Made by a program: the position numbers and the translations under genes. From contig CAXXHO010000001.1 of the NCBI GenBank assembly GCA_963667725.2, forward strand, positions 34,362 through 98,361: DNA of 64,000 bases, read 5' to 3'. The stretch is from Treponemataceae bacterium. Lineage in GTDB: Bacteria; Spirochaetota; Spirochaetia; Treponematales; Rectinemataceae. The notes below the pieces were generated by a model. It was not told the origin of the DNA. It ran no database searches and saw only the letters and a list, made by a program, of their open reading frames with translations. Positions 9,497 to 51,015 of the stretch are shown piece after piece (position 1 is the stretch's first letter; every line of letters starts with the position of its first letter).

Positions 9497-10220
9497 GCTC
9501 CAGGAAGCGGCGCGTGCGGTCCTCGCGGGGCGAGGTGAAGAAGGTCTCGGGCGGCGCTTCCTCGACGATCTGGCCGGCGTCCATGAAGATGATCCGGTGC
9601 GCGGCCGCCCTCGCGAAGCCCATCTCGTGGGAGACGACCAGCATGGTCATGCCTTCCTTGGCCAGGTCGGTCATGACGTCGAGGACTTCCTTGATCATTT
9701 CAGGATCGAGGGCGCTTGTCGGCTCGTCGAAGAGCATCACCTTGGGGTTCATGGCGAGGGCGCGGGCGATGGCGACGCGCTGCTGCTGGCCGCCGGAGAG
9801 CTGCTCGGGCCAGGCGCCCTCCTTTTCGGAGAGGCCGACCTTGGCCAGGAGCCTGCGCGCCGTGGCCGCAGCCTCTTCCTTGCCCTGCTTGAGCACGAGG
9901 GTCGGGGAGAGCGTTATGTTGTCCAGCACGCTCAAGTGGGGAAAGAGGTTGAAGCTCTGGAAAACCATGCCCACTTCCTCGCGGATGTGGCGGATATCGG
10001 ACTTCTCGTCGGTGACGCACTCGCCGTCGATGAAGATGCTGCCTGAATCGAGGGCCTCGAGCCGGTTGACCGAGCGGAGGAGGGTGCTCTTGCCCGAGCC
10101 CGAGGGCCCGATGATGAGGACGACCTCGCCCTTCCTGACGCTCAGGTCCACCCCGCGAAGGGCCTGGACGGTGCCGCCAAAGGTTTTGACGGCGTTCTTT
10201 ATCTCAATGTACGTTTCCAC
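9486..10220 (-). CDS. Polar amino acid ABC transporter ATP-binding protein (GlnQ/ArtR-like)
   Basis: [23 protein letters not shown] and [11 protein letters not shown]. Confidence 0.95.
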
Positions 10221-11028
10221 GGTGCCTCAGCTTTTCTTCCATAAATGCGACGACGCGCGAGAAGAAGAGGGTCATCACGAGGTAGATCAGCGCGATGATC
10301 GTGTAGCTTTCAAAATAGCGGAAGGAGGTCGACGCGTACTCGCGCCCGCGCCGGAGAAGGTCCGAGACCGCGAGTATGGAGACGAGCGACGAGTCCTTGA
10401 GCAGGGCGATGAATTCGTTCCCGATCGGGGGCAGGATAACCTTGACCGTCTGGGGAATGATGATCTTGCGCAGGGCCTGGCCCCGCGACATGCCGAGGGC
10501 GAGCGCGGCTTCCATCTGCCCCTTGGGGATGGACTGGATGCCGGCGCGGAAAATCTCCGCCATGTAGGCGCCGTAGCAGATCGACATGGCGAGGATGGCC
10601 GCGGGCGGTCCCTGCAGCTTCAGGAGCGGGCCCAGCGCGTAGTAGATGTAGAAAAGCTGGACCAGGAGGGGTATGCCGCGGATCACCTCGACATAGATCG
10701 TCGCGATGCGGTTGATGGTCTTGTTCTGCGAGATGCGCCCGAGCCCCGCGAAGAGGCCGATCATGAGCGCGAAGGCGATCGAAATGAGCGTGACGGCGAA
10801 GGTCGCCACGAGGCCGTCGGGGACGAAGGAAAGTATTCGCAGGTAGGGATCGGGACTCACCAGGGGCAGCACGACCAGGAGGCCGATCGCCCCGAAGAAT
10901 GCGATGTTCCAGGCGGAAAGCAAGCCGCCCTCATCCTTTGAGGGGATGAGGGTGCCGTCGGTGACATTAATCGTCGTCCGGCCGGTAGTGTGATCCTCCC
11001 GGCCGCGACTCTGAGAGCCTTTGTTCAT
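10204..11028 (-). CDS. Polar amino acid ABC transporter permease
   Basis: [31 protein letters not shown] and LLKDSSL. Start chosen as the first ATG after the SBP stop codon. Confidence 0.9.
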
Positions 11029-11032
11029 GGTG

Positions 11033-11797
11033 CTATTTGAGCCATTTCGCAATGAGTTCGTCAAGCTTGCCGGAGGCCTTTACCTTGGCGAGGCCGTCGG
11101 CGAAGAGCTTGGCGGTCTTGGCGTCGCCCTTCTTGAAGGCGAAGCCGAGCCACTCGTCGGTGAAGGGCTGGCCGACGATCATGAGCTTGTCCTTGTAGGC
11201 GGGGTTCTGGAGGGCGAAGTTGGCGGCGATGGGGGAGTCGGCGACGACGCCGTCGATATTGCCGTTCGCGAGATCCTGATAGGCGAGCCCCACTTCGTCG
11301 TAGGTCTTGAGCTCGACGCCGGCGACTTTGCCGATTTCCATCACGCCGGTGGTGCCGATCTGTCCGCCCACCTTCTTGCCAACGAGGTCGGCGAGCGTGG
11401 TTACTCCAGCGGTTTCCTTGCGCACGACGAGGACCTGGCCGGCGTTGACGTAGCCTTCCGAGAAGTCCATGGTGGCCTTGCGCTCGTCGGTGATGGTGAC
11501 AGAGGAGGCGACTGCCTGATAGTTGCCCGCGGCGAGGCCGGCGAAGATGCCGTCCCAGGCGGTGTTCTTGATTTCGACTTCGAAGCCGGCGGCCTTGGCG
11601 ATCTCGTTGACGAGGTCGACGTCGAAGCCGACGACGTTCTTGTTCTCGTCGACGAACTCCATGGGAGGCCAGGTGGCGTCCGAGGCGACGACGATCTTGG
11701 AGGGTTTCTTGGCGCAGGAAGAGAGGCTCGCCGAGCCGATGACGACGAGGGCTGCGAGCAGCACGAAGGCGACGGGAGCGGACCAGGATTTCTTCAT
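11033..11797 (-). CDS. Basic amino acid ABC transporter substrate-binding lipoprotein
   Basis: Lipobox LSSC; DATWPPMEF, GFDVDL, ITDERK and QIGTTG; RBS AAGGAG. Confidence 0.92.
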   Translation of the reverse strand: MKKSWSAPVAFVLLAALVVIGSASLSSCAKKPSKIVVASDATWPPMEFVDENKNVVGFDVDLVNEIAKAAGFEVEIKNTAWDGIFAGLAAGNYQAVASSVTITDERKATMDFSEGYVNAGQVLVVRKETAGVTTLADLVGKKVGGQIGTTGVMEIGKVAGVELKTYDEVGLAYQDLANGNIDGVVADSPIAANFALQNPAYKDKLMIVGQPFTDEWLGFAFKKGDAKTAKLFADGLAKVKASGKLDELIAKWLK

Positions 11798-11894
11798 TGC
11801 GTTACTCCTTGGGTTCCGGCGGGCTGGCGCCATTCTGGTGCATGCCGCCGCGGCTGGGACGCCTCGCTGGCGTCGGCGCCGTTATTTCTTTGCG

Positions 11895-11923
11895 AAGATA
11901 CGATATTTAGCATACAGTGTCAA
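11895..11923 (-). promoter_or_regulatory. Promoter TTGACA-17-TATCTT for the amino acid ABC operon
   Basis: Hexamers read on the minus strand. Confidence 0.6.
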
Positions 11924-11942
11924 TGACGGCATTCGATCATCT

Positions 11943-11977
11943 GCAATAGTTATGCACTATTTATGCATAATAATGCA
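11943..11977. promoter_or_regulatory. Tandem ARG-box-like operators
   Basis: GCAATAGTTATGCA and TGCATAATAATGCA start 21 bp apart, the spacing typical of tandem ArgR boxes. Confidence 0.6.
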
Positions 11978-12081
11978 GAATATGCCCTGCTTTGAGCCCC
12001 TGCAGCGCATATTTGCAGCGCGGGCGGCCGAGGCGCCCCTCCACGCTTGCGTCTGGAGGGGCGCCGGGAGTAGGATCGGCC

Positions 12082-12285
12082 ATGGTCGTTACGGTCAATT
12101 TCGAGAAGGAAGAATATCCGGAAGCTGAACTCAGCGTAGCCGAGATCATCAAGCGCCGCCGATACTCCTTTCCCCATATCATCACCACGCTGAACGGCAA
12201 GCTGGTCGAGCGCGACCATCGCGAGACCACGCTGGTTTCGCACGGCGACGATCTCGAAATCTTCCATTTGATAAGCGGGGGCTGA
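12082..12285 (+). CDS. ThiS/MoaD family sulfur carrier protein
   Basis: 67 aa beta-grasp-like sequence ending in ISGG. Confidence 0.88.
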   Translation: MVVTVNFEKEEYPEAELSVAEIIKRRRYSFPHIITTLNGKLVERDHRETTLVSHGDDLEIFHLISGG

Positions 12286-12399
12286 ACCCTGGCGACGGCC
12301 GAGAAGCCAACATCCGGCTGCCTCGCGGTGCGTGTAGCCAAATCCTCAAGCCGTGATATACTTCACCCAGAATTCTAAAAGCGAAAGGGAGTTCCAAAC

Positions 12400-14166
12400 A
12401 TGAAGAAAATTGCGCTGCTTGCCCTCGCGCTCTGCCTGCTGGCCTCTGTGGTGCCGGCCGCCGAGAACGCGAACAACCTGCAGAAGATCTATCCGGTGAA
12501 TTCCGACGTCTACAAGGCGATCACCTATCTCTTCATCGACCAGGGACTGGCGCTGCCCTCCACGTCCGGTCCATGGAGCGGCGACGAGCTCTTGGGCATG
12601 CTGGACAAGGTGAGTCCCGACAAGCTCGCTTCGGGCGCGCGAGCCACTTACGACTACGCGCTGGCCGAGCTCGCCCAGCACCGCAAGGCGGTGAAGTTCA
12701 CGCTGGCCACCTCGCTCGAGGGGTACTACCACACCAACACGACCGACTTCACCAAGGACAGCCAGTGGATCCGCGGCTTCGACGAGCGTAATCCCGTCCT
12801 CGACATCATCCTCGAGACCTGGCCCTCGGAGCATTTCTACGGCTACAGCTCGCTGCCCGTGCAGAACAACCGCTACAACGGCGAGAGCGCGGCCGATGGC
12901 TACACGTCGACCCTCTGGGGATCGAGCGCTCTGACGACGAACATCCCGATGGTGGCCCCCGCCGTGATCGGCGACCTCAACATGAACGTGCCGTACCGGG
13001 CTTTCGGCGCCATCGGCGGCACGGGCTGGAGCGCCCAGATCGGCCGTGACAAGCTCTCCTGGGGTCCCGGCGAGTCGGGCAACTTCGTGCTCGGCGACCA
13101 CCTGCTTTACCACAACGTGGGCAGGCTGGCGACTTACGGTAAAAACTTCAAGTACACCTTCCTGACTTCGTTCTTTCCCTACCCGACCGACTACTACCCG
13201 ATCATCGATGGTTCGGGCAATTTCATCAACGAGGGCAGCCAGGATACCATCCAGAGCGGCATCAACATGTTCATCGGCCACAGGGTCGAGGGACGGCTCT
13301 TCAACAACAAGGTCGGCATCGCGCTCAACGAGGCGATCATGTACCAGTCGGCGGACAACGCCATCGACCTCCAGGTTCTGAGCCCCACGGCTATCTTCCA
13401 CGACTATTACATCAGGGGCAACGCCAACTCCATCATATCCCTTGAAGTGGACTATAACCCGATCAGGTATGTCGATCTTTACGGCCAGGTGGTGGTGGAC
13501 GAGTTCTACCTGCCCGGCGAGCCGGTTCCCGGCGTCGACGCTGACGCCCTGCCGAATGCTTTCGGATATATGGCCGGCGCCAAGGCGTCCTATCCGCTGG
13601 GAAAGGGAATGCTTTTCGGCTCGGCCGAGTGGGCCAAGACCGATCCCTACCTCTACTTGAGGGACGGCGGCGACCGCGACCAGGATCAGGGCGAGTACGG
13701 CATCAATTGGGTGGTGGCGCTCCGCGAATTCAACTCCAGTTCGGGCATCACCTACACTGAGGACTTTATCGGCTACCAGTACGGCTGCGACGCCATCGTC
13801 TACAACGCCAACCTTGGCTACAAGGTCTTTGGCAAGTGGTCCCTGGAAGGCAATATCTTCTATATGATACACGGCACGCATGACAAGTGGACGACCTGGG
13901 GCGGCCAAGGCGACGCTGCCCAGGACACCGAAACCACGCCAACCACGACCCATGTGACGGATAACAACGGCGACCTCAACGCCGACGAGCGCAACGCGGC
14001 GAGCTACACCTTCGTGGTGGGCGCCCATGGCGGCTACACGATCCTGAAGGGGCTCGAGGTTTACGGCCAGGTGGACTACATCCACATCACGAACCCGGGC
14101 AACATCAGCACGAACGCGCCGATCAGCGACGTGCAGATCACGGCGGGAGTCAAGTACTCGCTGTAG
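12400..14166 (+). CDS. Exported Wzi-like putative outer-membrane beta-barrel, paralog 1
   Basis: Signal peptide; GRDKLSWGPGESGNFVLGD, HRVE, YGQVVVDEF, TDPYLY and IGYQYG; beta-strand-like C-terminus ending VKYSL. Confidence 0.7.
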   Translation: MKKIALLALALCLLASVVPAAENANNLQKIYPVNSDVYKAITYLFIDQGLALPSTSGPWSGDELLGMLDKVSPDKLASGARATYDYALAELAQHRKAVKFTLATSLEGYYHTNTTDFTKDSQWIRGFDERNPVLDIILETWPSEHFYGYSSLPVQNNRYNGESAADGYTSTLWGSSALTTNIPMVAPAVIGDLNMNVPYRAFGAIGGTGWSAQIGRDKLSWGPGESGNFVLGDHLLYHNVGRLATYGKNFKYTFLTSFFPYPTDYYPIIDGSGNFINEGSQDTIQSGINMFIGHRVEGRLFNNKVGIALNEAIMYQSADNAIDLQVLSPTAIFHDYYIRGNANSIISLEVDYNPIRYVDLYGQVVVDEFYLPGEPVPGVDADALPNAFGYMAGAKASYPLGKGMLFGSAEWAKTDPYLYLRDGGDRDQDQGEYGINWVVALREFNSSSGITYTEDFIGYQYGCDAIVYNANLGYKVFGKWSLEGNIFYMIHGTHDKWTTWGGQGDAAQDTETTPTTTHVTDNNGDLNADERNAASYTFVVGAHGGYTILKGLEVYGQVDYIHITNPGNISTNAPISDVQITAGVKYSL

Positions 14167-44025: not shown

Positions 44026-44053
44026 TTGACAAGGCAAAAATTCTCGATACTAT
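44026..44053 (+). promoter_or_regulatory. Promoter TTGACA-16-TACTAT for the peptidase/transporter operon
   Basis: Read directly from the sequence. Confidence 0.6.
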
Positions 44054-44107
44054 GGGCGCAGTGGATAAAAAACCATCCATTCGCTGGATGGTCAAGGAGG
44101 ATGTGCT

Positions 44108-45769
44108 ATGCGAAAGAGACTGGCGCTCACGGCGGCTATCCTGGCGCTCGCGGTTCTCGCGGCCGGCGCCGCGGACTTCTCCCAATACGCTTCTCCGGAC
44201 CTGGAGCCCGGCGAATGCACGGCCCTCATCATCGGCAAGCTCGCCTCGACGGACGGCTCGGTGATGACCTCGCACACCTGCGACGGCAACTACGACTCGC
44301 GGCTCACCGTTGTGCCCGGCAAGAGCTTCAAGCCCGGCGAAACGGTGAAAATTCTCAAGGATCTCCTCTACTCCGACAATCCCAGCGTCAAGGTGACGGT
44401 GCTGGGCGAGATCCCCCAGGTCGAGAAGACCTACACCTATTTCCAGATCGCCTATCCCTTCATGAACGAGAACCAGGTCATGATCGGCGAGACGACGATC
44501 GGCAACAAGAAGGAACTCAACAACCCCAGCGGCATGTTCTACATCGAGCAGCTCGAGGCTATCGCCCTGCAGCGCGCCAAGACCGCCCGCGAGGCCGTCA
44601 AGATCATGGGCGAGCTGGCCGAGAAATACGGCTACGCCGACGGCGGCGAGTGCCTGACCGTGACCGACGCGAACGAAGGCTGGGTCTTCGAGTGCCTGGG
44701 CGCGGGTCCGCTCTGGACCAAGGATTCCGGACAGCCCGGCGCCGTCTGGGCCGCTGTCCGCGTTCCCGACGACAAGATCTTCGTGTCCGCCAACCGCTCG
44801 CGCATCGGCGAGCTCGACCTGTCCAAGCCGGACTGGTACATGGCCTCCCCCAACGTCTTCAGCCTGGCCCAGGACATGGGCTTCTGGGACGGCAAATCGA
44901 CCTTCCGCTTCCGGGAAGCCTACGCGCCCAAGGACAATCCCTACAACTCCAGGCGCGAGTGGCGCGTCTACTCGGCCTTCGCCCCCTCCAGGAACTTCGA
45001 TCCCTTCGCCCGCCGCTATCCCTTCGCCGTGACCCCCGACAAGAAGATCAGCGTGCAGGACGTGATGGCGATCTACCGCGACCACTACGAAGGCACGCAG
45101 TTCGACCTGACCAAGGGCGTCGAGGCGGGCCCCTTCGGGAACCCGAACCGCTGGGCCACCAAGTCGGCGCCCGGCTCCGGCGGCTGGGAACGCGCGATTT
45201 CCATGTTCCGCTGTTCCTACTGCTTCGTCTCACAGGCCAGAAGCTGGCTGCCCGACGCCATCGGCGGCGTGCTCTGGTTCGGCGAGGACGCCCCGCACGC
45301 CACGGTGTACATGCCGATCTACGCCGGCGTCACCGCGGTGCCCAAGTCCCTCGGGATCCAGAACCGCTACGCCTTCAGCCGCGACTCGGCGTGGTGGGCC
45401 TTCGACTTCGTCGAGAACTGGGCCAACCTCTCCTACTCCTACATCATCAAGGACATCAAGGCCAAGCAGGCCCAGTATGAGGGCGAGTTCTTCGCCATGC
45501 AGGGCCCCGTCGAGGCGGCCGCCGCGGCGATGTACAAGACCGACCCGGCACTGGCCAAGTCCTTCCTGACCCGCTACTCGAACGACGCGATCAACCGCGT
45601 GGTCGGCGAGTGGTGGAACTTCGCGGACGAGCTCGTGGCCAAGTACAACGACGGCTACCTCTGGTACAAGACCAAGGGCTACCCCGACGAGTGGCTCGCC
45701 GCGGTCAAGTACGGCGATTCCGCCAAGTTCGACAAGTACAAAGACCTCATCTACCCGGACGAAAAGTAA
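44108..45769 (+). CDS. Secreted C69 family dipeptidase (Ntn hydrolase)
   Basis: Signal peptide, then ECTALIIG..ASTDGS, MNENQV.IGETT, AKTAREA and WERAIS. Confidence 0.9.
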   Translation: MRKRLALTAAILALAVLAAGAADFSQYASPDLEPGECTALIIGKLASTDGSVMTSHTCDGNYDSRLTVVPGKSFKPGETVKILKDLLYSDNPSVKVTVLGEIPQVEKTYTYFQIAYPFMNENQVMIGETTIGNKKELNNPSGMFYIEQLEAIALQRAKTAREAVKIMGELAEKYGYADGGECLTVTDANEGWVFECLGAGPLWTKDSGQPGAVWAAVRVPDDKIFVSANRSRIGELDLSKPDWYMASPNVFSLAQDMGFWDGKSTFRFREAYAPKDNPYNSRREWRVYSAFAPSRNFDPFARRYPFAVTPDKKISVQDVMAIYRDHYEGTQFDLTKGVEAGPFGNPNRWATKSAPGSGGWERAISMFRCSYCFVSQARSWLPDAIGGVLWFGEDAPHATVYMPIYAGVTAVPKSLGIQNRYAFSRDSAWWAFDFVENWANLSYSYIIKDIKAKQAQYEGEFFAMQGPVEAAAAAMYKTDPALAKSFLTRYSNDAINRVVGEWWNFADELVAKYNDGYLWYKTKGYPDEWLAAVKYGDSAKFDKYKDLIYPDEK

Positions 45770-45825
45770 GCAGACTATCGGGGGCGGCCGCCGCCCCCGG
45801 TTTTTCCCCAGGAGGAGAACTCACC

Positions 45826-46452
45826 GTGCGAAGCATCACCATAATCAATAAAGGCTCGAAAGCCGGAAACGCCTCGGCTTCGGCGATCGTCATCGCCCTT
45901 CTCGCGGCGTTCGTCTTCTGCGCGGCCGCCGGCGCCCAGCAGGCACCCTTGCCCAAGGGGCTTCCCGAACTGAGGGCGCCCATACTCATCACCGCCTGCG
46001 GCCAGAGCCCCGGCGGCGTCTACGTCAAGGTCGTATGCCGCCAGGTCAAGCTCGACGCCGATCTGGACGAGATGGCCACCGTCCAGACCCTGGGCGCCCG
46101 CGCCTACAAGACTCTGGTCATCATCACCGGTACCAGTCTCAAGGGCATGGGCTCGGCGGGCGTCGAGCTTCCCGACGAGATCAAGCGCTGCACCGAGCTT
46201 ATCAAGAAAGCCAAGGCCGCCGGTATGAAAGTGATCGTCGCCCAGGTCGAGGGCGCCTCGCGCCGCGTCGACGAGTCCGACGAGCAGTCCATCCGCTCGA
46301 TGACGCCGCTCGCCGACCTCCTCGTCACCCACAACCAGGCGAACAAGGACGGCTACTTCACCAAGACGGCGGCGGAGAAGAAGATTCCGCAAATCTTCAT
46401 CGACCAGCAGCTCGATCTCGTGAAGATATTCCCGCAGATTTTCTCCAAATAG
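45826..46452 (+). CDS. Exported alpha/beta protein, DUF6305-like
   Basis: Signal peptide; LITACGQSPG, G.SLKGMGSAG and N.DGYF. Family name is recalled from motifs and context. GTG start after AGGAGGAG. Confidence 0.6.
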   Translation: MRSITIINKGSKAGNASASAIVIALLAAFVFCAAAGAQQAPLPKGLPELRAPILITACGQSPGGVYVKVVCRQVKLDADLDEMATVQTLGARAYKTLVIITGTSLKGMGSAGVELPDEIKRCTELIKKAKAAGMKVIVAQVEGASRRVDESDEQSIRSMTPLADLLVTHNQANKDGYFTKTAAEKKIPQIFIDQQLDLVKIFPQIFSK

Positions 46453-46468
46453 CGCCAAGGAGGTCGCC

Positions 46469-47758
46469 ATGCTCAACCATGCGCTGCTCGTCCTGGGGGT
46501 GATGGTCGCCGCGTTCGCCATCGCCAGCCGGCTCAAGGTGAGCGTGGAGCTCTCCATGCTTCTGGCCGCCGTCGCCGGTGGCCTGGCCCATGGCTCGGGC
46601 TTCTCCGCCCGCCATATTGTGGACGGATCTTTCACCTATTTCGACGTTACGCTGATCTTCCTCAGCGCGACCTTCTTCATGAACATCGTGAAGGAGTCGG
46701 GCGGGGTGGATTACATCGTCGGCGGCATCGTCAAGCGCTTCCACGCGAACCGCTTCCTCTGCCTCCTCTTCCTCACCTTCATCCTCCTGATCCCGGGCGC
46801 CCTCACGGGTTCGGGGAGCGTCACGGTCCTGGTCGTGGGCGCTTTGGCGGCCAAGGTGCTTTCCGAGATGGGCATACCCAAGGAGAAGGTCACGGCGATC
46901 GTCTTCCTCTGCGCCGCGATGAGCGCCGCCGCGCCGCCCGTGAACCTTTGGGCGATGATGGCGGCCGCCGGCTCCAACATGCCCTACGTGGGATTCGTCG
47001 GGCCGCTCGGCGCGCTTTCGATCGCGGGAGCGCTCTTCAGCATGTTCTGGCTCGGCTGGAAGGGCACGCCCATCGACGCGCCCAAAGTTCTCGCCGAGAT
47101 CAAGGTCGACGCGAGGATGCGCGGATGGCGGGTCGGAATTCCCTTCGCCGCGCTGATCGCGCTTATCGCGCTGTCCAGGATCTTCCCGCATTCCTTCCCG
47201 ATCCTCGGCCTGCCCCTCTGCTTCATGATCGCGGCGGCAGCAGCCGCCGCGACGAGCGCCAAGAGGCTGCCGCTGCTCAAGATCGCGCGCGACACGGTGG
47301 ACAGCCTCCTGCCCCTGATAGGGATGATGGTTGTCGTGGGCATCCTGGTCCAGGCGATGAGCCTGAGCGGCGTGCGCGGGCTGATATCGCTGAGCGTCGT
47401 CACCCTGCCCCTGGCTGTTATCATCGGCGCCCTCTTCGTCATCCTGCCCCTGTCCGAGGGGCTCGTGCAGTACGCCTCGGCGCCCCTGCTCGGCGTCCCC
47501 CTCATCCTGCTTTTCAACATGAAGGGCATCGATCCCGTGGTGGCGCTCTCGGCCATGGCGATGATGTGGCCCCTCGGCGACATGCTGCCGCCGACCCTCG
47601 TGGTCGGCCGCGCGGCGGTCATGGTCACCGGCTACGACGGCGCCTATTACCGGGGCTTCGTCAAGGCGACGCTCGTGCCGGCCCTCTTCATTCTGGCCCT
47701 CTCGACCCTCGCCGTGGTCTTCAACGGCCAGCTCACTTTCCTCAAGGCCTTGGGATAA
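46469..47758 (+). CDS. DctM-like / ion-transporter superfamily permease
   Basis: About 12 TM segments; PGALTGSG, AAAPPVNLW and GDMLPPT hairpin motifs. Confidence 0.75.
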   Translation: MLNHALLVLGVMVAAFAIASRLKVSVELSMLLAAVAGGLAHGSGFSARHIVDGSFTYFDVTLIFLSATFFMNIVKESGGVDYIVGGIVKRFHANRFLCLLFLTFILLIPGALTGSGSVTVLVVGALAAKVLSEMGIPKEKVTAIVFLCAAMSAAAPPVNLWAMMAAAGSNMPYVGFVGPLGALSIAGALFSMFWLGWKGTPIDAPKVLAEIKVDARMRGWRVGIPFAALIALIALSRIFPHSFPILGLPLCFMIAAAAAAATSAKRLPLLKIARDTVDSLLPLIGMMVVVGILVQAMSLSGVRGLISLSVVTLPLAVIIGALFVILPLSEGLVQYASAPLLGVPLILLFNMKGIDPVVALSAMAMMWPLGDMLPPTLVVGRAAVMVTGYDGAYYRGFVKATLVPALFILALSTLAVVFNGQLTFLKALG

Positions 47759-47770
47759 GGAGGCGGCGCG

Positions 47771-47926
47771 ATGAACGAAGCGGTGATGGCGCTCTATTAC
47801 GCCACGACGGCATTTTTCGCCGCCATGATGGCATGGAATTTCGTCCGCGCGAAGGACGCGCAGAAAGCCCTCCTCTACCTGGTCGTGCTGATGCCCTTCG
47901 TCATGCGGCTCCTCAGGCTCAAGTGA
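47771..47926 (+). CDS. 51-aa two-TM membrane protein (not in the ORF track)
   Basis: MNEAVMALYYATTAFFAAMMAWNFVRAKDAQKALLYLVVLMPFVMRLLRLK; RBS AAGGAGG; fills the operon gap. Confidence 0.75.
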   Translation: MNEAVMALYYATTAFFAAMMAWNFVRAKDAQKALLYLVVLMPFVMRLLRLK

Positions 47927-47943
47927 CGGAAGGGAGGCTTGGT

Positions 47944-49122
47944 ATGAATAAAGCCGAACAGGGCAAGGCCCTGATCGCGATCAAAGCCCTCGGACTGGCC
48001 TCCTGGGCCGTAGTGATGATCTTCGCGGGCGTCGCCTTCCGCCAGCACCGGACGTGGCGGGAGCCCGTCGTTCTCGGGCCGGGCGTCACGGAGGTGCGGT
48101 CGCTGCACGAGTGGTTCCCACCGCTCGAGGGCACCGAGAACGACTGCAACGTCTACGTCCTCGACTCCGGCGTGCCGGGCTCGACCATCCTCGTCCTCGG
48201 CGGCACCCACCCCGAGGAGCCGGCGACGAACCTCGCGGCCGAGCTCCTGGTGGAGAAGGCCAAGCCGACGGCCGGGAAGCTGCTGGTGGCCATCCACACG
48301 AACCGCAGCGCCTCCACGGTGACGCGCCCGGGCGAGGCCTATCCGCAGTTCTATTCGATCAAGACGGACTGGGGCCAGAAAAAGTACCGCATGGGCGACC
48401 GCTCGGCCAACCCGCTGGATTCCTGGCCCGATCCGGAAACCTACGTCCACTTCCCGAGCGGCCAGATGCTCGCCTATATGGATATCAGGAACATCAACAG
48501 GACCTGGCCGGGCAGGCCGAACGGGCTGCTCTGCGAGCGCACGTCCTATGCTTTCATGCAGATGATCAGGCGGGAAAAGGTCGACCTCGTGATCGACTAC
48601 CACGAGGCCGAGCTGGAGTATCCCGTGATCGGGACGATCGTCGCCCACCAGAAGGCGCAGGAAGTGGCCGCCATGGTCTCGATGGATCTCTCGGCCAGCC
48701 AGTTCCGCATCGGGATGGAAGTGTCGCCCAAGACGCTGCACGGCCTGACGCACCGCGAGATCGGCGATTTCTCCGACGCCACCGCCCTGCTCTTCGAGTC
48801 GCCCGAGCCCTTCCTGGACCGCGTGCGCGGGGCCACGAACGAGGCGCTGCTGCTGACGGGCAAGGACGAGTTCGTGCTGCGGGCGGGAAAGGCCGGCCTG
48901 CTCTACTGGCCGATCGACGAGAACGGCTGGCCCATCGAAGTGCGCGTGGGGCGGCATGTCGCGACGACGTCCAAGGTTTTCGAGGTCTGGAATCTCCTCT
49001 ATCCGGATAAGCCGATCATGGTCGAAGGCATGCCCGGCTACGAAGACTTGGCGGCCAAGGGCGTCGGCGCGTATTTCGCCGATCCGTCAGCGCTGCCCAA
49101 GGATCGTGTCGCGTTCGAATGA
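47944..49122 (+). CDS. Membrane-anchored succinylglutamate desuccinylase/aspartoacylase (M14-like) enzyme
   Basis: N-terminal TM; GGTHPEE (HxxE), NINRTWPG and DYHEA; RBS GGGAGG. Confidence 0.8.
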   Translation: MNKAEQGKALIAIKALGLASWAVVMIFAGVAFRQHRTWREPVVLGPGVTEVRSLHEWFPPLEGTENDCNVYVLDSGVPGSTILVLGGTHPEEPATNLAAELLVEKAKPTAGKLLVAIHTNRSASTVTRPGEAYPQFYSIKTDWGQKKYRMGDRSANPLDSWPDPETYVHFPSGQMLAYMDIRNINRTWPGRPNGLLCERTSYAFMQMIRREKVDLVIDYHEAELEYPVIGTIVAHQKAQEVAAMVSMDLSASQFRIGMEVSPKTLHGLTHREIGDFSDATALLFESPEPFLDRVRGATNEALLLTGKDEFVLRAGKAGLLYWPIDENGWPIEVRVGRHVATTSKVFEVWNLLYPDKPIMVEGMPGYEDLAAKGVGAYFADPSALPKDRVAFE

Positions 49123-49227: not shown

Positions 49228-51015
49228 CTACAGCGCGGAGCAGCGGTTCTTGCCCAGGCGCTTGGCCTCGCGCAGGGCGCGTTCGGCGCGCTCCACGAAA
49301 GCCTCGCCGGATTCCTTCCCGTCGAATTCAGCGATGCCGATGCTCAGCGTAAGCTCCCAATCGATCGTGGGCTCGGGTTCCGCGCCTTCTCCCGCCTCGG
49401 GATCGGCGCCCGAAACAAAGTCGGCGCCTGGCGTCGAGTCAGGCGAAGGCACGGCGCGGACCGACTCGGCCGCGAAACGGGCGCGTACGCGCTCGGCGAC
49501 GGCGGCTGCCGACTTCGCCGCGATGCCCGCGACGATCACCGCGAACTCGTCGCCGCCGAAGCGGCAGAGTATGTCCCCGTCCCTCGTGCAGCGCTTGAGC
49601 ACGTCCGCGGCGCCGATCAGGATCTCGTCGCCCTCGGTGCGCCCCACCTCGTCGTTGAAGCGCTCGAAGTCGTCCACATCGAGGATGAGGATGGAGAGCG
49701 GCGCAGGAAGCTCCCGCGCGCGCTCGAGCGCCTTATCCAGCTCGAGCATGAAATAGCGCCTGTTATTGAGCCCGGTGAGCATATCGGTATAGTTGAGCTC
49801 GCGGTAGCGCGCCTCGATCGCGGCCATCTTCTCCGATTCGGCGGCCAGGCTCTTGAAGCGGTCGCTCAGGGCCATCGCCAGCAGGACCGACTGGACGGCC
49901 ATGCCGAAGGAAACGGCATTGACGGTGAAGAAATTGACGGGCAGAGCCTTGAGCCCCATGAGCGAGAAGATGATGCCCGACAGGGCGAGGGCCGACCAGC
50001 CGATGAGGTAGTAGAGGGCCGAGCGGAACCCCTGGCGCAGGCGCGCCACCGCGCAGATCATGACGGCCACGGGCAGGATCAGCGCCATATAGTGCGAAAG
50101 CGAGAAGGCTACCTCATTCCAGCCGGCAAGGCCCGTTATCGAGACGACGGCGCCGAGGCAGGCGAGGATGGAGACGATCGTGTGGAGCGCCGGGCTCCCG
50201 TCTTTGAGCCTGAGGAAAAGGAGGGTGAAGACGGCGCCCCAGGTGAGCATCCCGCCCGCGTTGAACCAGAGCATGAGCTGGTCGAAGCCGGCGTGCGGTC
50301 CGAAGAAATACTTGGCGTGCCCCTGCACGTAGAAGATCCAGAGCCCTGTGGCGCCGATGTAGAGGATATAGAAAAGATAGGCGAAATCGCGCAGCGAGAA
50401 GAGGAGGAAGGTGCCGTAGAGCAGCATCGCCACGAGGATGCCGTAGAGAATGCAATAAACGGCGATTTCGACGCCCTCGGCGCGGGTGTAGCCGATGGCC
50501 GGCGCCAGAGACACCTCGAAGCTCACGTCCGTCTGGCTGGCGAGGCGCAGGAAGCAGGGCGCGCCGGATGCGGCGCCTGAGGGCAGCTCGAAGGCGTAGT
50601 TGCGCGAGCGGAGTTCGCCGCCGCGCTCGGCGGCCAGGGCGCCCGAATCGAGCTCGATGTAGCCGCCGCCGGCTTTAGGGACGTAGAGGTCCGCATGGTC
50701 CAGAATGATGGAGAAGCTCGGCTTGACGACGAGGAGCCGCTGGCGCTGAGCGTCGCCCTCGCCCGGAGTCTCGGGAATGGCGAAGCGGAGCCATGCGGCG
50801 GGCGCGTCGCGGCCCACCCACAGGAGGCGGCCCGAAACCGGCGTGAAGCGTTCGTCGAGCCTTCCTGAGGCGAAGTCGGCGATGGCGAGCGCGGGATCGG
50901 CGTTGAAGTAGATATCGGCGCCCGCTCCGAGATCGATGGCCGCGGGCAGGGCCCAGGCCGCCGCCGCGGCGACAAGCGAGGCGAAAAAGAAGGCAACAAG
51001 CTTTTTTGCGATCAT
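49228..51015 (-). CDS. 7TM-DISM sensor diguanylate cyclase
   Basis: Signal peptide, extracytoplasmic domain, about 7 TM segments, DMLTGLNNRR, RDGD I-site and RFGGDEF. Confidence 0.9.
   Translation of the reverse strand: MIAKKLVAFFFASLVAAAAAWALPAAIDLGAGADIYFNADPALAIADFASGRLDERFTPVSGRLLWVGRDAPAAWLRFAIPETPGEGDAQRQRLLVVKPSFSIILDHADLYVPKAGGGYIELDSGALAAERGGELRSRNYAFELPSGAASGAPCFLRLASQTDVSFEVSLAPAIGYTRAEGVEIAVYCILYGILVAMLLYGTFLLFSLRDFAYLFYILYIGATGLWIFYVQGHAKYFFGPHAGFDQLMLWFNAGGMLTWGAVFTLLFLRLKDGSPALHTIVSILACLGAVVSITGLAGWNEVAFSLSHYMALILPVAVMICAVARLRQGFRSALYYLIGWSALALSGIIFSLMGLKALPVNFFTVNAVSFGMAVQSVLLAMALSDRFKSLAAESEKMAAIEARYRELNYTDMLTGLNNRRYFMLELDKALERARELPAPLSILILDVDDFERFNDEVGRTEGDEILIGAADVLKRCTRDGDILCRFGGDEFAVIVAGIAAKSAAAVAERVRARFAAESVRAVPSPDSTPGADFVSGADPEAGEGAEPEPTIDWELTLSIGIAEFDGKESGEAFVERAERALREAKRLGKNRCSAL

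Follow-up and report, generated by a model that had tools for sequence, protein, structure and literature searches.

A conserved five-gene module with a TRAP-like permease, a micro-protein and predicted exported hydrolases, and its possible role in gamma-glutamyl salvage

Introduction

How is an elevator-type importer supplied with substrate when its operon carries no gene for a recognised binding protein? The question is raised by five genes of a Treponemataceae bacterium that lie within a 64,000-nucleotide stretch of genomic DNA, here called the window (assembly GCA_963667725.2, contig CAXXHO010000001.1, positions 34,362 to 98,361 of the forward strand). A preliminary description of this DNA had proposed a new type of three-part transporter, in which a small exported DUF6305-like protein replaces the binding protein of TRAP systems and a 51-residue micro-protein replaces their DctQ subunit. 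We find that the five genes form one conserved module, which across its family is linked to the synthase genes for poly-gamma-glutamate (PGA). On balance, we think it probable that the module salvages gamma-glutamyl material, hydrolysing it outside the inner membrane and then taking up the products.

The genes, in order, are:

44108..45769, plus strand: gene for a C69-family N-terminal nucleophile (Ntn) cysteine hydrolase, open reading frame (ORF) of 553 amino acids (aa)
45826..46452, plus strand: DUF6305 gene with a GTG start, ORF of 208 aa
46469..47758, plus strand: permease gene, ORF of 429 aa
47771..47926, plus strand: micro-protein gene, ORF of 51 aa
47944..49122, plus strand: gene for an M14/AstE-AspA-type zinc amidohydrolase, ORF of 392 aa

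Results

Five genes form one conserved module

The genes are tightly spaced on the plus strand, as had been described: successive gaps measure 56, 16, 12 and 17 nt. An AGGAGG/GGAGG-like site can be read upstream of each gene. Pfam and NCBIfam searches confirm that there is no DctQ match and no gene for a two-lobed DctP or TAXI protein among the five; the search did not extend to orphan DctP or TAXI genes in the rest of the genome.

The gene-neighbourhood comparison that the preliminary description had called for was carried out on a permease-centred set of 84 loci (four plus the best 80 of 561 metagenome loci, not de-duplicated), which were scanned with local profiles; order was counted only where at least 300 nt of flank (micro-gene) or 700 nt (M14 gene) was available. 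The micro-gene directly follows the permease gene in 72 of 72 such loci, and the M14 gene follows the micro-gene in 68 of 68. DUF6305 adjoins the permease in 55 of 73 loci; of the remaining 18, 11 have it at another place in the locus, and in seven, for which 0.6-2.5 kb of upstream DNA was covered, it was not seen. The 28 widest loci all contain DUF6305, 20 contain C69, 15 contain pgs genes, and 27 have C69 or pgs. Gene order is conserved far beyond chance. At the genome level, a profile search of 61 related genomes found DUF6305 in 23; 22 of these, and no other genome, have the permease. Together, these counts bear out the earlier view of the genes as a single conserved system.

In the wider phylum, DUF6305 exceeds the cut-off in only 2 of 401 sampled genomes (one family, f25, has four weak matches below it). 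Named hosts belong to Spirochaetota, Fusobacteriota and Krumholzibacteriia, and Atlas clusters add Bacillota, Thermotogota and Aminicenantota. The window's assembly holds eight DUF6305 and seven permease matches, with divergent copies (29-48% permease identity) whose hairpin-tip motifs differ. The same assembly has 20 strong DctM and 15 DctQ matches, every DctQ lying beside a canonical DctM. Clustering of 233 unassigned neighbouring ORFs yielded no recurrent binding-protein family, and none of the 35 of these that were scanned against Pfam is DctP, DctQ, TAXI or TctC.

A second, DUF6305-centred set (20 of 43 matches outside the window's own genome, picked by score and flank) shows how the module varies. 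M14 and gamma-glutamyltranspeptidase (GGT) genes are present in 20 of 20 of these loci, GGT occupying the C69 slot in every one. Half of the loci (10/20, from two lineages only) lack the permease; they always retain an M14 neighbour (10/10), and the micro-gene is absent from them. Conversely, seven loci with a GGT-permease-micro-M14 arrangement lack DUF6305. In two genomes, G420 and G431 (80% and 88% complete), the sole DUF6305 gene and the sole permease gene stand in separate loci and both are kept.

Several local arrangements were seen in passing. The permease-less set DUF6305-M14-GGT-M14 occurs in L024 (8463-13092), L110, L112, L114, L116, L118, L123, L125 and L126; its M14 enzymes look secreted, and by eye it often adjoins two long genes resembling acyl-CoA ligases. 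Locus L022 (1506-13438), in a low-GC stretch, carries two tandem DUF6305 genes and GGT, and follows a two-component pair and three genes that by eye resemble a tripartite tricarboxylate transporter. In L066, L070, L072, L081, L092, L097 and L101, a lineage that also has convergent pgsBCW, M28 peptidase genes recur on the other strand, either between DUF6305 and the permease or next to them.

The permease is modelled as an elevator-type carrier of its own family

The preliminary description had called the permease DctM-like, a statement that stands for its fold and not for any family match. The structural model (pLDDT 91.2) aligns over the whole chain with members of the IT superfamily (ArsB, Z 28.2; NaS1, 27.9; SiaM, 27.4), superposing on SiaM with a TM score of 0.70-0.71 over 394 residues at 13-18% identity. 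Compared with profiles of the four IT groups of the genome, built from templates of unequal depth, the permease profile scored 80% with fused M subunits, 23% with DctM (376 columns), 4% with Cit/Ars and 0.2% with NhaC. Neither Pfam nor NCBIfam matches the window's permease to DctM; weak matches to DctM (PF06808) appear in 18 of 64 permease relatives (E<=0.01, best 4e-12), as against 229-409 bits for canonical DctM proteins, and PDB sequence searches returned nothing useful. In a FastTree phylogeny with weak deep branches, 52 rows of the family group together in a clade that excludes 15 DctM and five fused M sequences. The family is large (2813 relatives among 7999 scored), and databases label it 'TRAP large subunit' or 'C4-dicarboxylate transporter'. 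Judged by modelled fold and profile, the permease is an elevator-type carrier of the IT superfamily, in a family of its own that is nearest to TRAP M subunits, and its fold suggests that transport would be cation-coupled.

The micro-protein probably serves as a permease subunit

The 51-residue protein belongs to a family of 70 sequences, about 49-58 aa long, with two hydrophobic helices and a basic loop; Y9, P42 and R46 are invariant and K51 nearly so. It has no Pfam family and no likeness to DctQ (hhalign 0.6%). Its constant place after the permease gene makes it a likely permease subunit. DctQ has been proposed to extend the scaffold of its carrier and so let it work as a monomer (PMC9971032; this and the other papers cited are drawn on in excerpt), and the micro-protein may brace its carrier in a comparable way. 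The suggestion that it replaces DctQ survives only as an analogy, without a relationship in sequence.

Both hydrolases retain their catalytic residues

The C69 protein scores 241 bits against its Pfam family (cut-off 23) and 197 bits against NF033678 of NCBIfam, below the equivalog cut-off of 250. A signal peptide is predicted at residues 1-21, and Cys37 aligns with the N-terminal nucleophile cysteine of a solved dipeptidase, 5iau (E 2e-24). C69 is a variable member of the module, its slot being taken elsewhere by GGT; both enzymes are Ntn hydrolases (PMC9140057 for C69, PMC4497714 for GGT).

The M14 enzyme matches the AstE/AspA family of Pfam at 20.5 bits, below the cut-off of 25, and the profile of its own family matches M14 deacylases in the PDB (E 8e-12). 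Residues H89, E92, H220, R182, N185, R186 and E285 are intact, and across module relatives all are present in 109 of 109 copies except N185 (105/109); their roles as zinc ligands (HxxE...H), NR carboxylate motif and catalytic Glu we take over from aspartoacylase and carboxypeptidase A. An uncleaved N-terminal membrane anchor is predicted. Within it, G29 and R36 are found in 78 and 87 of the 90 copies encoded beside a micro-gene, and in only 8 and 3 of the 19 others, which mostly look secreted, although many of the copies compared are close kin. This conservation suggests that the anchor packs against a membrane partner. The earlier description of a secreted C69 enzyme and a membrane-anchored M14 enzyme therefore holds, with intact catalytic residues in both and with export and anchoring as predictions.

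DUF6305 is a single domain, predicted to be exported, with a candidate carboxylate site

The second gene product is a clear DUF6305 protein (Pfam 152 bits, cut-off 25) with a predicted signal peptide at residues 1-37. Its model (pLDDT 93.6) is a single six-stranded alpha/beta domain of 171 aa. In full-length numbering, the conserved residues are G59-Q60-S61, S104-x-K106-G107, E118, R121, R146-R147, D175 and F178; across 150 representatives K106, R146, R147 and other conserved positions come after the C-terminal ends of four parallel strands, an arrangement that in the model suggests a carboxylate site at this strand-end ligand edge. By a crude rule, an N-terminal hydrophobic stretch is present in 139 of the 150 best representatives and a lipobox-like motif in 40; the lipoproteins often sit on long flexible tethers, as lipoprotein binding proteins do.

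Fold comparison gave generic Rossmann-like matches, with Z scores of at most 10.1 and an rmsd of about 3. Neither the VIA lists nor the Foldseek list includes a binding-protein fold among the best 50 matches, an absence that excludes nothing. PDB sequence searches returned nothing useful, and a literature search for DUF6305 yielded no paper. A predicted complex of permease, micro-protein and DUF6305 gave DUF6305 a score of 0.00 against a mark of 0.32, which speaks neither for nor against binding. An SGNH pseudo-hydrolase was considered and set aside: the likeness to SGNH/GDSL proteins is weak (Foldseek TM about 0.4, Z about 8; profile 0.2% against three proteins of the genome), Ser61 is only 83% conserved, and no conserved His stands where SGNH enzymes would have it.

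Domain fusions offer a further view of the protein. GGT-DUF6305 fusions occur in P0267 and P0276, two clusters among 2839 candidates, and other architectures include tandem repeats (P0128, P0138, L022) and a TctC fusion (P0256). With the window protein as query, no long form was found among 1849 candidates; this search is insensitive, since such forms were seen by other means. A search of fusion regions found only the GGT fusions and missed P0128, P0138 and P0256, so that a DUF6305-permease fusion could still exist. One apparent case, P0146, in which DUF6305 runs into permease-like sequence, has a scrambled junction and stops short, and was treated as a frameshift artefact. In P0256 the DUF6305 domain is fused to TPR as well as TctC, in P0138 a dockerin lies between two DUF6305 copies, and in P0191, P0207 and P0238 DUF6305 follows an unnamed N-terminal domain of ~160 residues.

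The module family is linked to PGA synthase genes

The pgs genes occur in 33 loci, upstream, downstream, convergent or divergent. In the window's own assembly, paralogue L020 runs on into pgsB, pgsC and pgsW (TIGR04012, TIGR04011, TIGR04332), and in Cetobacterium somerae a single run reads ggt-DUF6305-permease-micro-AstE-pgsB-pgsC-pgsW. The pgs-bearing locus L045 lies in the sister branch of the window copy in the FastTree permease phylogeny. Among 37 genomes of the window's family, 22 have both DUF6305 and pgsW, 13 have neither and one each has either alone, so that the two agree in 35 of 37 and pgsW accompanies DUF6305 in 22 of 23; in each of three genera, a genome with both genes stands beside one lacking both. 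A second phylum, that of a Krumholzibacteriia genome, has pgsW in 8 of 10 DUF6305 genomes as against 51 of 141 others, and within about 4 kb in 6 of 8 DUF6305 genomes. The family is thus linked to PGA synthase genes, and the window copy itself is unlinked.

Known PGA-degrading enzymes belong to matching fold classes: GGT takes single units off the N-terminal side of PGA, and PghP, which hydrolyses PGA, is a zinc enzyme related to carboxypeptidase A (PMC4497714). The preliminary description had named acylated or gamma/iso-linked peptides as substrates; the GGT and pgsBCW links favour the gamma-glutamyl part of that range, an assignment for which gene context argues strongly in the family and less so for this copy.

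Two observations on hosts stand apart from this argument. At the C. somerae locus (L106, 1723-8253), on a 664-kb plasmid record, the module is preceded by two ggt genes and a two-component pair. In family f20 of the phylum sample, 70 of 75 genomes carry pgsW (TIGR04332), as do several of f41, and none of them has DUF6305.

Discussion

A working model for gamma-glutamyl salvage

In the reading that we favour, the substrate would most likely be a PGA-type product of the cell's own PgsB-PgsC-PgsW, or else short gamma-glutamyl peptides. Its cleavage, on the outer side of the inner membrane, would fall to the C69 enzyme, predicted to be exported, and the zinc hydrolase, predicted to be membrane-anchored; going by their families, the C69/GGT slot would act from the amino end, and the M14 enzyme would free a residue with a free alpha-carboxylate. 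The predicted elevator-type permease, likely with its 51-residue partner, would then import freed glutamate or small fragments, presumably with cation coupling. The invariant gene order and the conserved anchor residues suggest that permease, micro-protein and probably the M14 anchor helix make up one membrane complex, in which the small helices would extend the scaffold as DctQ does. DUF6305 may be an exported accessory protein that binds carboxylates and keeps substrate ready for either the hydrolases or the carrier. A bolder version, which we put forward only tentatively and consider doubtful, makes this a new importer class: a carrier braced by a micro-protein and a hydrolase anchor, the enzyme sitting on the carrier and feeding it glutamate from a gamma-glutamyl polymer and DUF6305 catching substrate in a new way, the whole serving anaerobes as a dedicated recycling arm of the pgsBCW system.

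Several results weigh against gamma-glutamyl salvage. No pgs or ggt gene adjoins the window copy, the assembly's pgsBCW lying at paralogue L020. The differing hairpin-tip motifs of the paralogues suggest that their substrates may differ. C69 enzymes are named dipeptidases, the papers found that mention C69, dipeptidase and gamma-glutamyl together give no gamma-glutamyl activity in the portions covered, and the nearest solved M14 relatives are N-acyl deacylases. The conservation counts include kin and are not independent, and Fisher p values for the co-occurrence are overstated for that reason. Lastly, pgsW is lacking in 2 of 10 DUF6305 genomes of the second phylum and in 1 of 4 of a further set, all incomplete assemblies, and it occurs without DUF6305 in 84 of 86 pgsW genomes of the phylum and 51 of 59 of the second, so that synthesis is independent of the module. 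The frequency of pgsW without the module fits an optional recycling arm, not a component of synthesis.

Alternative readings

What DUF6305 does is the point on which two alternatives divide. One holds that it serves GGT/C69 or the M14 enzyme as a binding or activating subunit, while the anchored M14 enzyme feeds a binding-protein-independent carrier directly. This is a serious possibility, if short of probable: GGT-DUF6305 fusions exist, DUF6305-M14-GGT-M14 loci are conserved without a permease, permease, micro-gene and M14 gene are the sole trio never broken, the anchor residues are conserved only in permease-linked M14 copies, and the permease fold is no nearer to SiaM than to carriers that work alone (ArsB, DASS). 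Its difficulties are the rarity of the fusion (two clusters among the 2839 candidates), the restriction of permease-less loci to two lineages, and the near-perfect co-occurrence of DUF6305 and permease across genomes. That co-occurrence, with DUF6305 in all 22 permease genomes, also speaks for the other alternative, the one originally proposed: a true three-part transporter, whose uptake depends on DUF6305 as a binding protein with a single lobe, perhaps acting as a dimer, docked on the permease. It agrees with the salvage reading on substrate and differs on delivery. DUF6305 is exported or a lipoprotein, often on a flexible tether, with conserved Lys and Arg residues at the C-terminal strand ends; tandem repeats and one TctC-DUF6305 fusion exist; and G420 and G431 keep both sole copies despite their separate loci, though these genomes are only 80% and 88% complete. 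We nevertheless regard replacement of the binding protein as rather unlikely, as DUF6305 is one domain of 171 aa as against the two domains and 300-350 aa of TRAP binding proteins, it is missing from the seven GGT-permease-micro-M14 loci, its enzyme fusions are with GGT, and 10 of the 20 DUF6305-centred loci (albeit of two lineages only) have hydrolases and no permease.

The remaining alternatives concern the substrate and the direction of flow. C69-type copies such as that of the window could scavenge ordinary dipeptides or N-acylated amino acids, leaving gamma-glutamyl material to other paralogues. Besides the missing pgs and ggt neighbours, the dipeptidase family of C69 and the deacylase structures nearest to M14, this would fit the recurrence of M28 peptidases nearby and the separation of the C69-linked clade from GGT-linked rows in DUF6305 and permease trees alike; same-locus pgs genes are nonetheless present in 12 of 27 rows of the C69-linked permease clade, including the near branch L045, and we judge the idea unlikely. 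Still less probable is a role in polymer biogenesis, in which GGT/C69 would anchor or trim the product as CapD does, the micro-protein would be a CapE-like stimulator, and the permease would supply precursor or export product. Same-strand runs with pgsBCW would suit such a role, as would the facts that CapD is a GGT-family anchoring enzyme (PMC4497714) and that PgsE/CapE stimulates synthesis (PMC3815933). Most pgsW genomes, however, lack DUF6305, the micro-gene tracks the permease rather than pgsBC and is absent from permease-less loci, and many module copies lie far from pgs, with several paralogues per genome as against one pgsW.

Signals and surroundings of the window locus

Three further features were annotated in and ahead of the operon:

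44026..44053, plus strand: sigma-70-like promoter match TTGACA-16-TACTAT, 10 of 12 matches to the consensus
44071..44093, plus strand: short inverted repeat within the leader, upstream of the C69 ribosome-binding site (z -1.5, weak)
45777..45801, plus strand: GC-rich 11-bp hairpin with a U-run in the gap between the C69 and DUF6305 genes (z -1.6, by itself not significant)

The promoter-like element, whose activity is predicted, is kept in the two closest (L026, L027) of six relatives aligned, as is the inverted repeat; in the four more distant loci the promoter region is not alignable. A motif scan gave 5 promoter-like sites in 10 kb, compared with 1.5 +/- 1.2 in shuffled sequence. By eye, hairpins of differing sequence occupy the same spot between genes 1 and 2 in relatives. 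The window's hairpin is a possible partial terminator or mRNA stabiliser, and with its U-run after the C69 gene it may lower expression of the genes downstream. The single promoter claimed earlier is thus matched by a plausible element, and the single transcript is qualified by this hairpin. Contigs from RNA libraries span the operon flanks too and may be DNA, which makes them uninformative on expression or co-transcription.

By Pfam, the operon is flanked by a sugar-ABC permease gene and a 7TM-DISM GGDEF gene. The latter, a 7TM-DISM receptor with a GGDEF domain (49228-51015, minus strand), converges on the operon and adjoins it also in L001 and L027. On contig C5 the sugar-ABC and GGDEF genes adjoin without the module between them.

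Close relatives are labelled Rectinemataceae or Spirochaetes. For most long ORFs of the window contig, two other contigs of the assembly carry counterparts at 80-99% identity; from position 34408 of contig C1 onward, these are co-linear and lie on C7 or C5. The window contig probably comes from a co-binned close relative. Given these contig-wide counterparts and an assembly contamination of 6.3%, the 85%-identical twin locus L018 is probably an orthologue from the co-binned relative, not a true paralogue. Upstream of L018, on the same strand (10196-12595), are genes for an M20 amidohydrolase and for a membrane protein of 392 aa that neither Pfam nor NCBIfam recognises.

Comparison with known systems

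We found no description of the module in the literature searched, which did not extend to supplementary gene tables and subscription papers; PGA genes and TRAP systems are mentioned separately in excerpts of two reports (10.1101/536078, PMC10057702). The module is apparently undescribed, and would be categorically new only if hydrolase-fed or DUF6305-fed transport were shown. It offers testable roles for DUF6305, for an unnamed micro-protein family and for a TRAP-labelled permease family of thousands without TRAP partners. Were the salvage reading true, anaerobes of several phyla would have in the module a route by which the pgsB-pgsC-pgsW polymer is degraded and reused. Transfer of substrate to the carrier by a hydrolase or by DUF6305, if it occurs, would add to the known ways in which an elevator transporter is fed. 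As a cultured host, C. somerae makes the module directly testable.

Stand-alone carriers of the IT and DASS groups (ArsB, VcINDY, NaCT, DcuC) share the permease fold with equal Z scores, although their profile match is weaker. Such carriers are homodimers and are not known to have an obligatory micro-subunit or hydrolase. TRAP systems (DctPQM, SiaPQM 7qha, IseQM 9pym, and TAXI-TRAP with its fused M) share the elevator fold over the whole chain, give the best profile match, and likewise pair a small membrane protein with an exported one in their operons. The permease differs from them in its 13-18% identity and in forming its own clade outside DctM and fused M; it is an unfused protein of 429 aa, its two-helix, 51-aa partner is unrelated to the four-helix DctQ, and a membrane-anchored hydrolase is a fixed member here. 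TRAP binding proteins, moreover, have two domains and 300-350 aa (PMC12344293). The module is therefore TRAP-like in fold and not a TRAP member, because its Q and P counterparts fall outside the TRAP definition (PMC9971032, PMC12344293).

The enzymes have their own parallels. AstE/AspA deacylases (DoeB 6twm, Mlr6093 2qj8) align with the M14 enzyme at the zinc ligands and the NR carboxylate motif, but only in two short stretches below family cut-offs, and the enzyme here is predicted to be membrane-anchored and outward-facing. PGA turnover in Bacillus (pgsBCAE-pgdS, GGT, CapD, PghP) also employs exported gamma-glutamyl hydrolases of Ntn and carboxypeptidase-A-like folds that are linked to PGA synthesis genes (PMC4497714), an activity that is predicted here; by contrast, the synthase here is of the pgsB-pgsC-pgsW type, and the excerpted account of the Bacillus system mentions neither a dedicated carrier nor a micro-protein nor DUF6305. 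TAXI-GltS of Bordetella pertussis (PMC12344293) gives a precedent for an exported protein newly paired with an elevator-type glutamate carrier; there both TAXI and GltS are recognisable, whereas the module described here has neither and has hydrolases built in.

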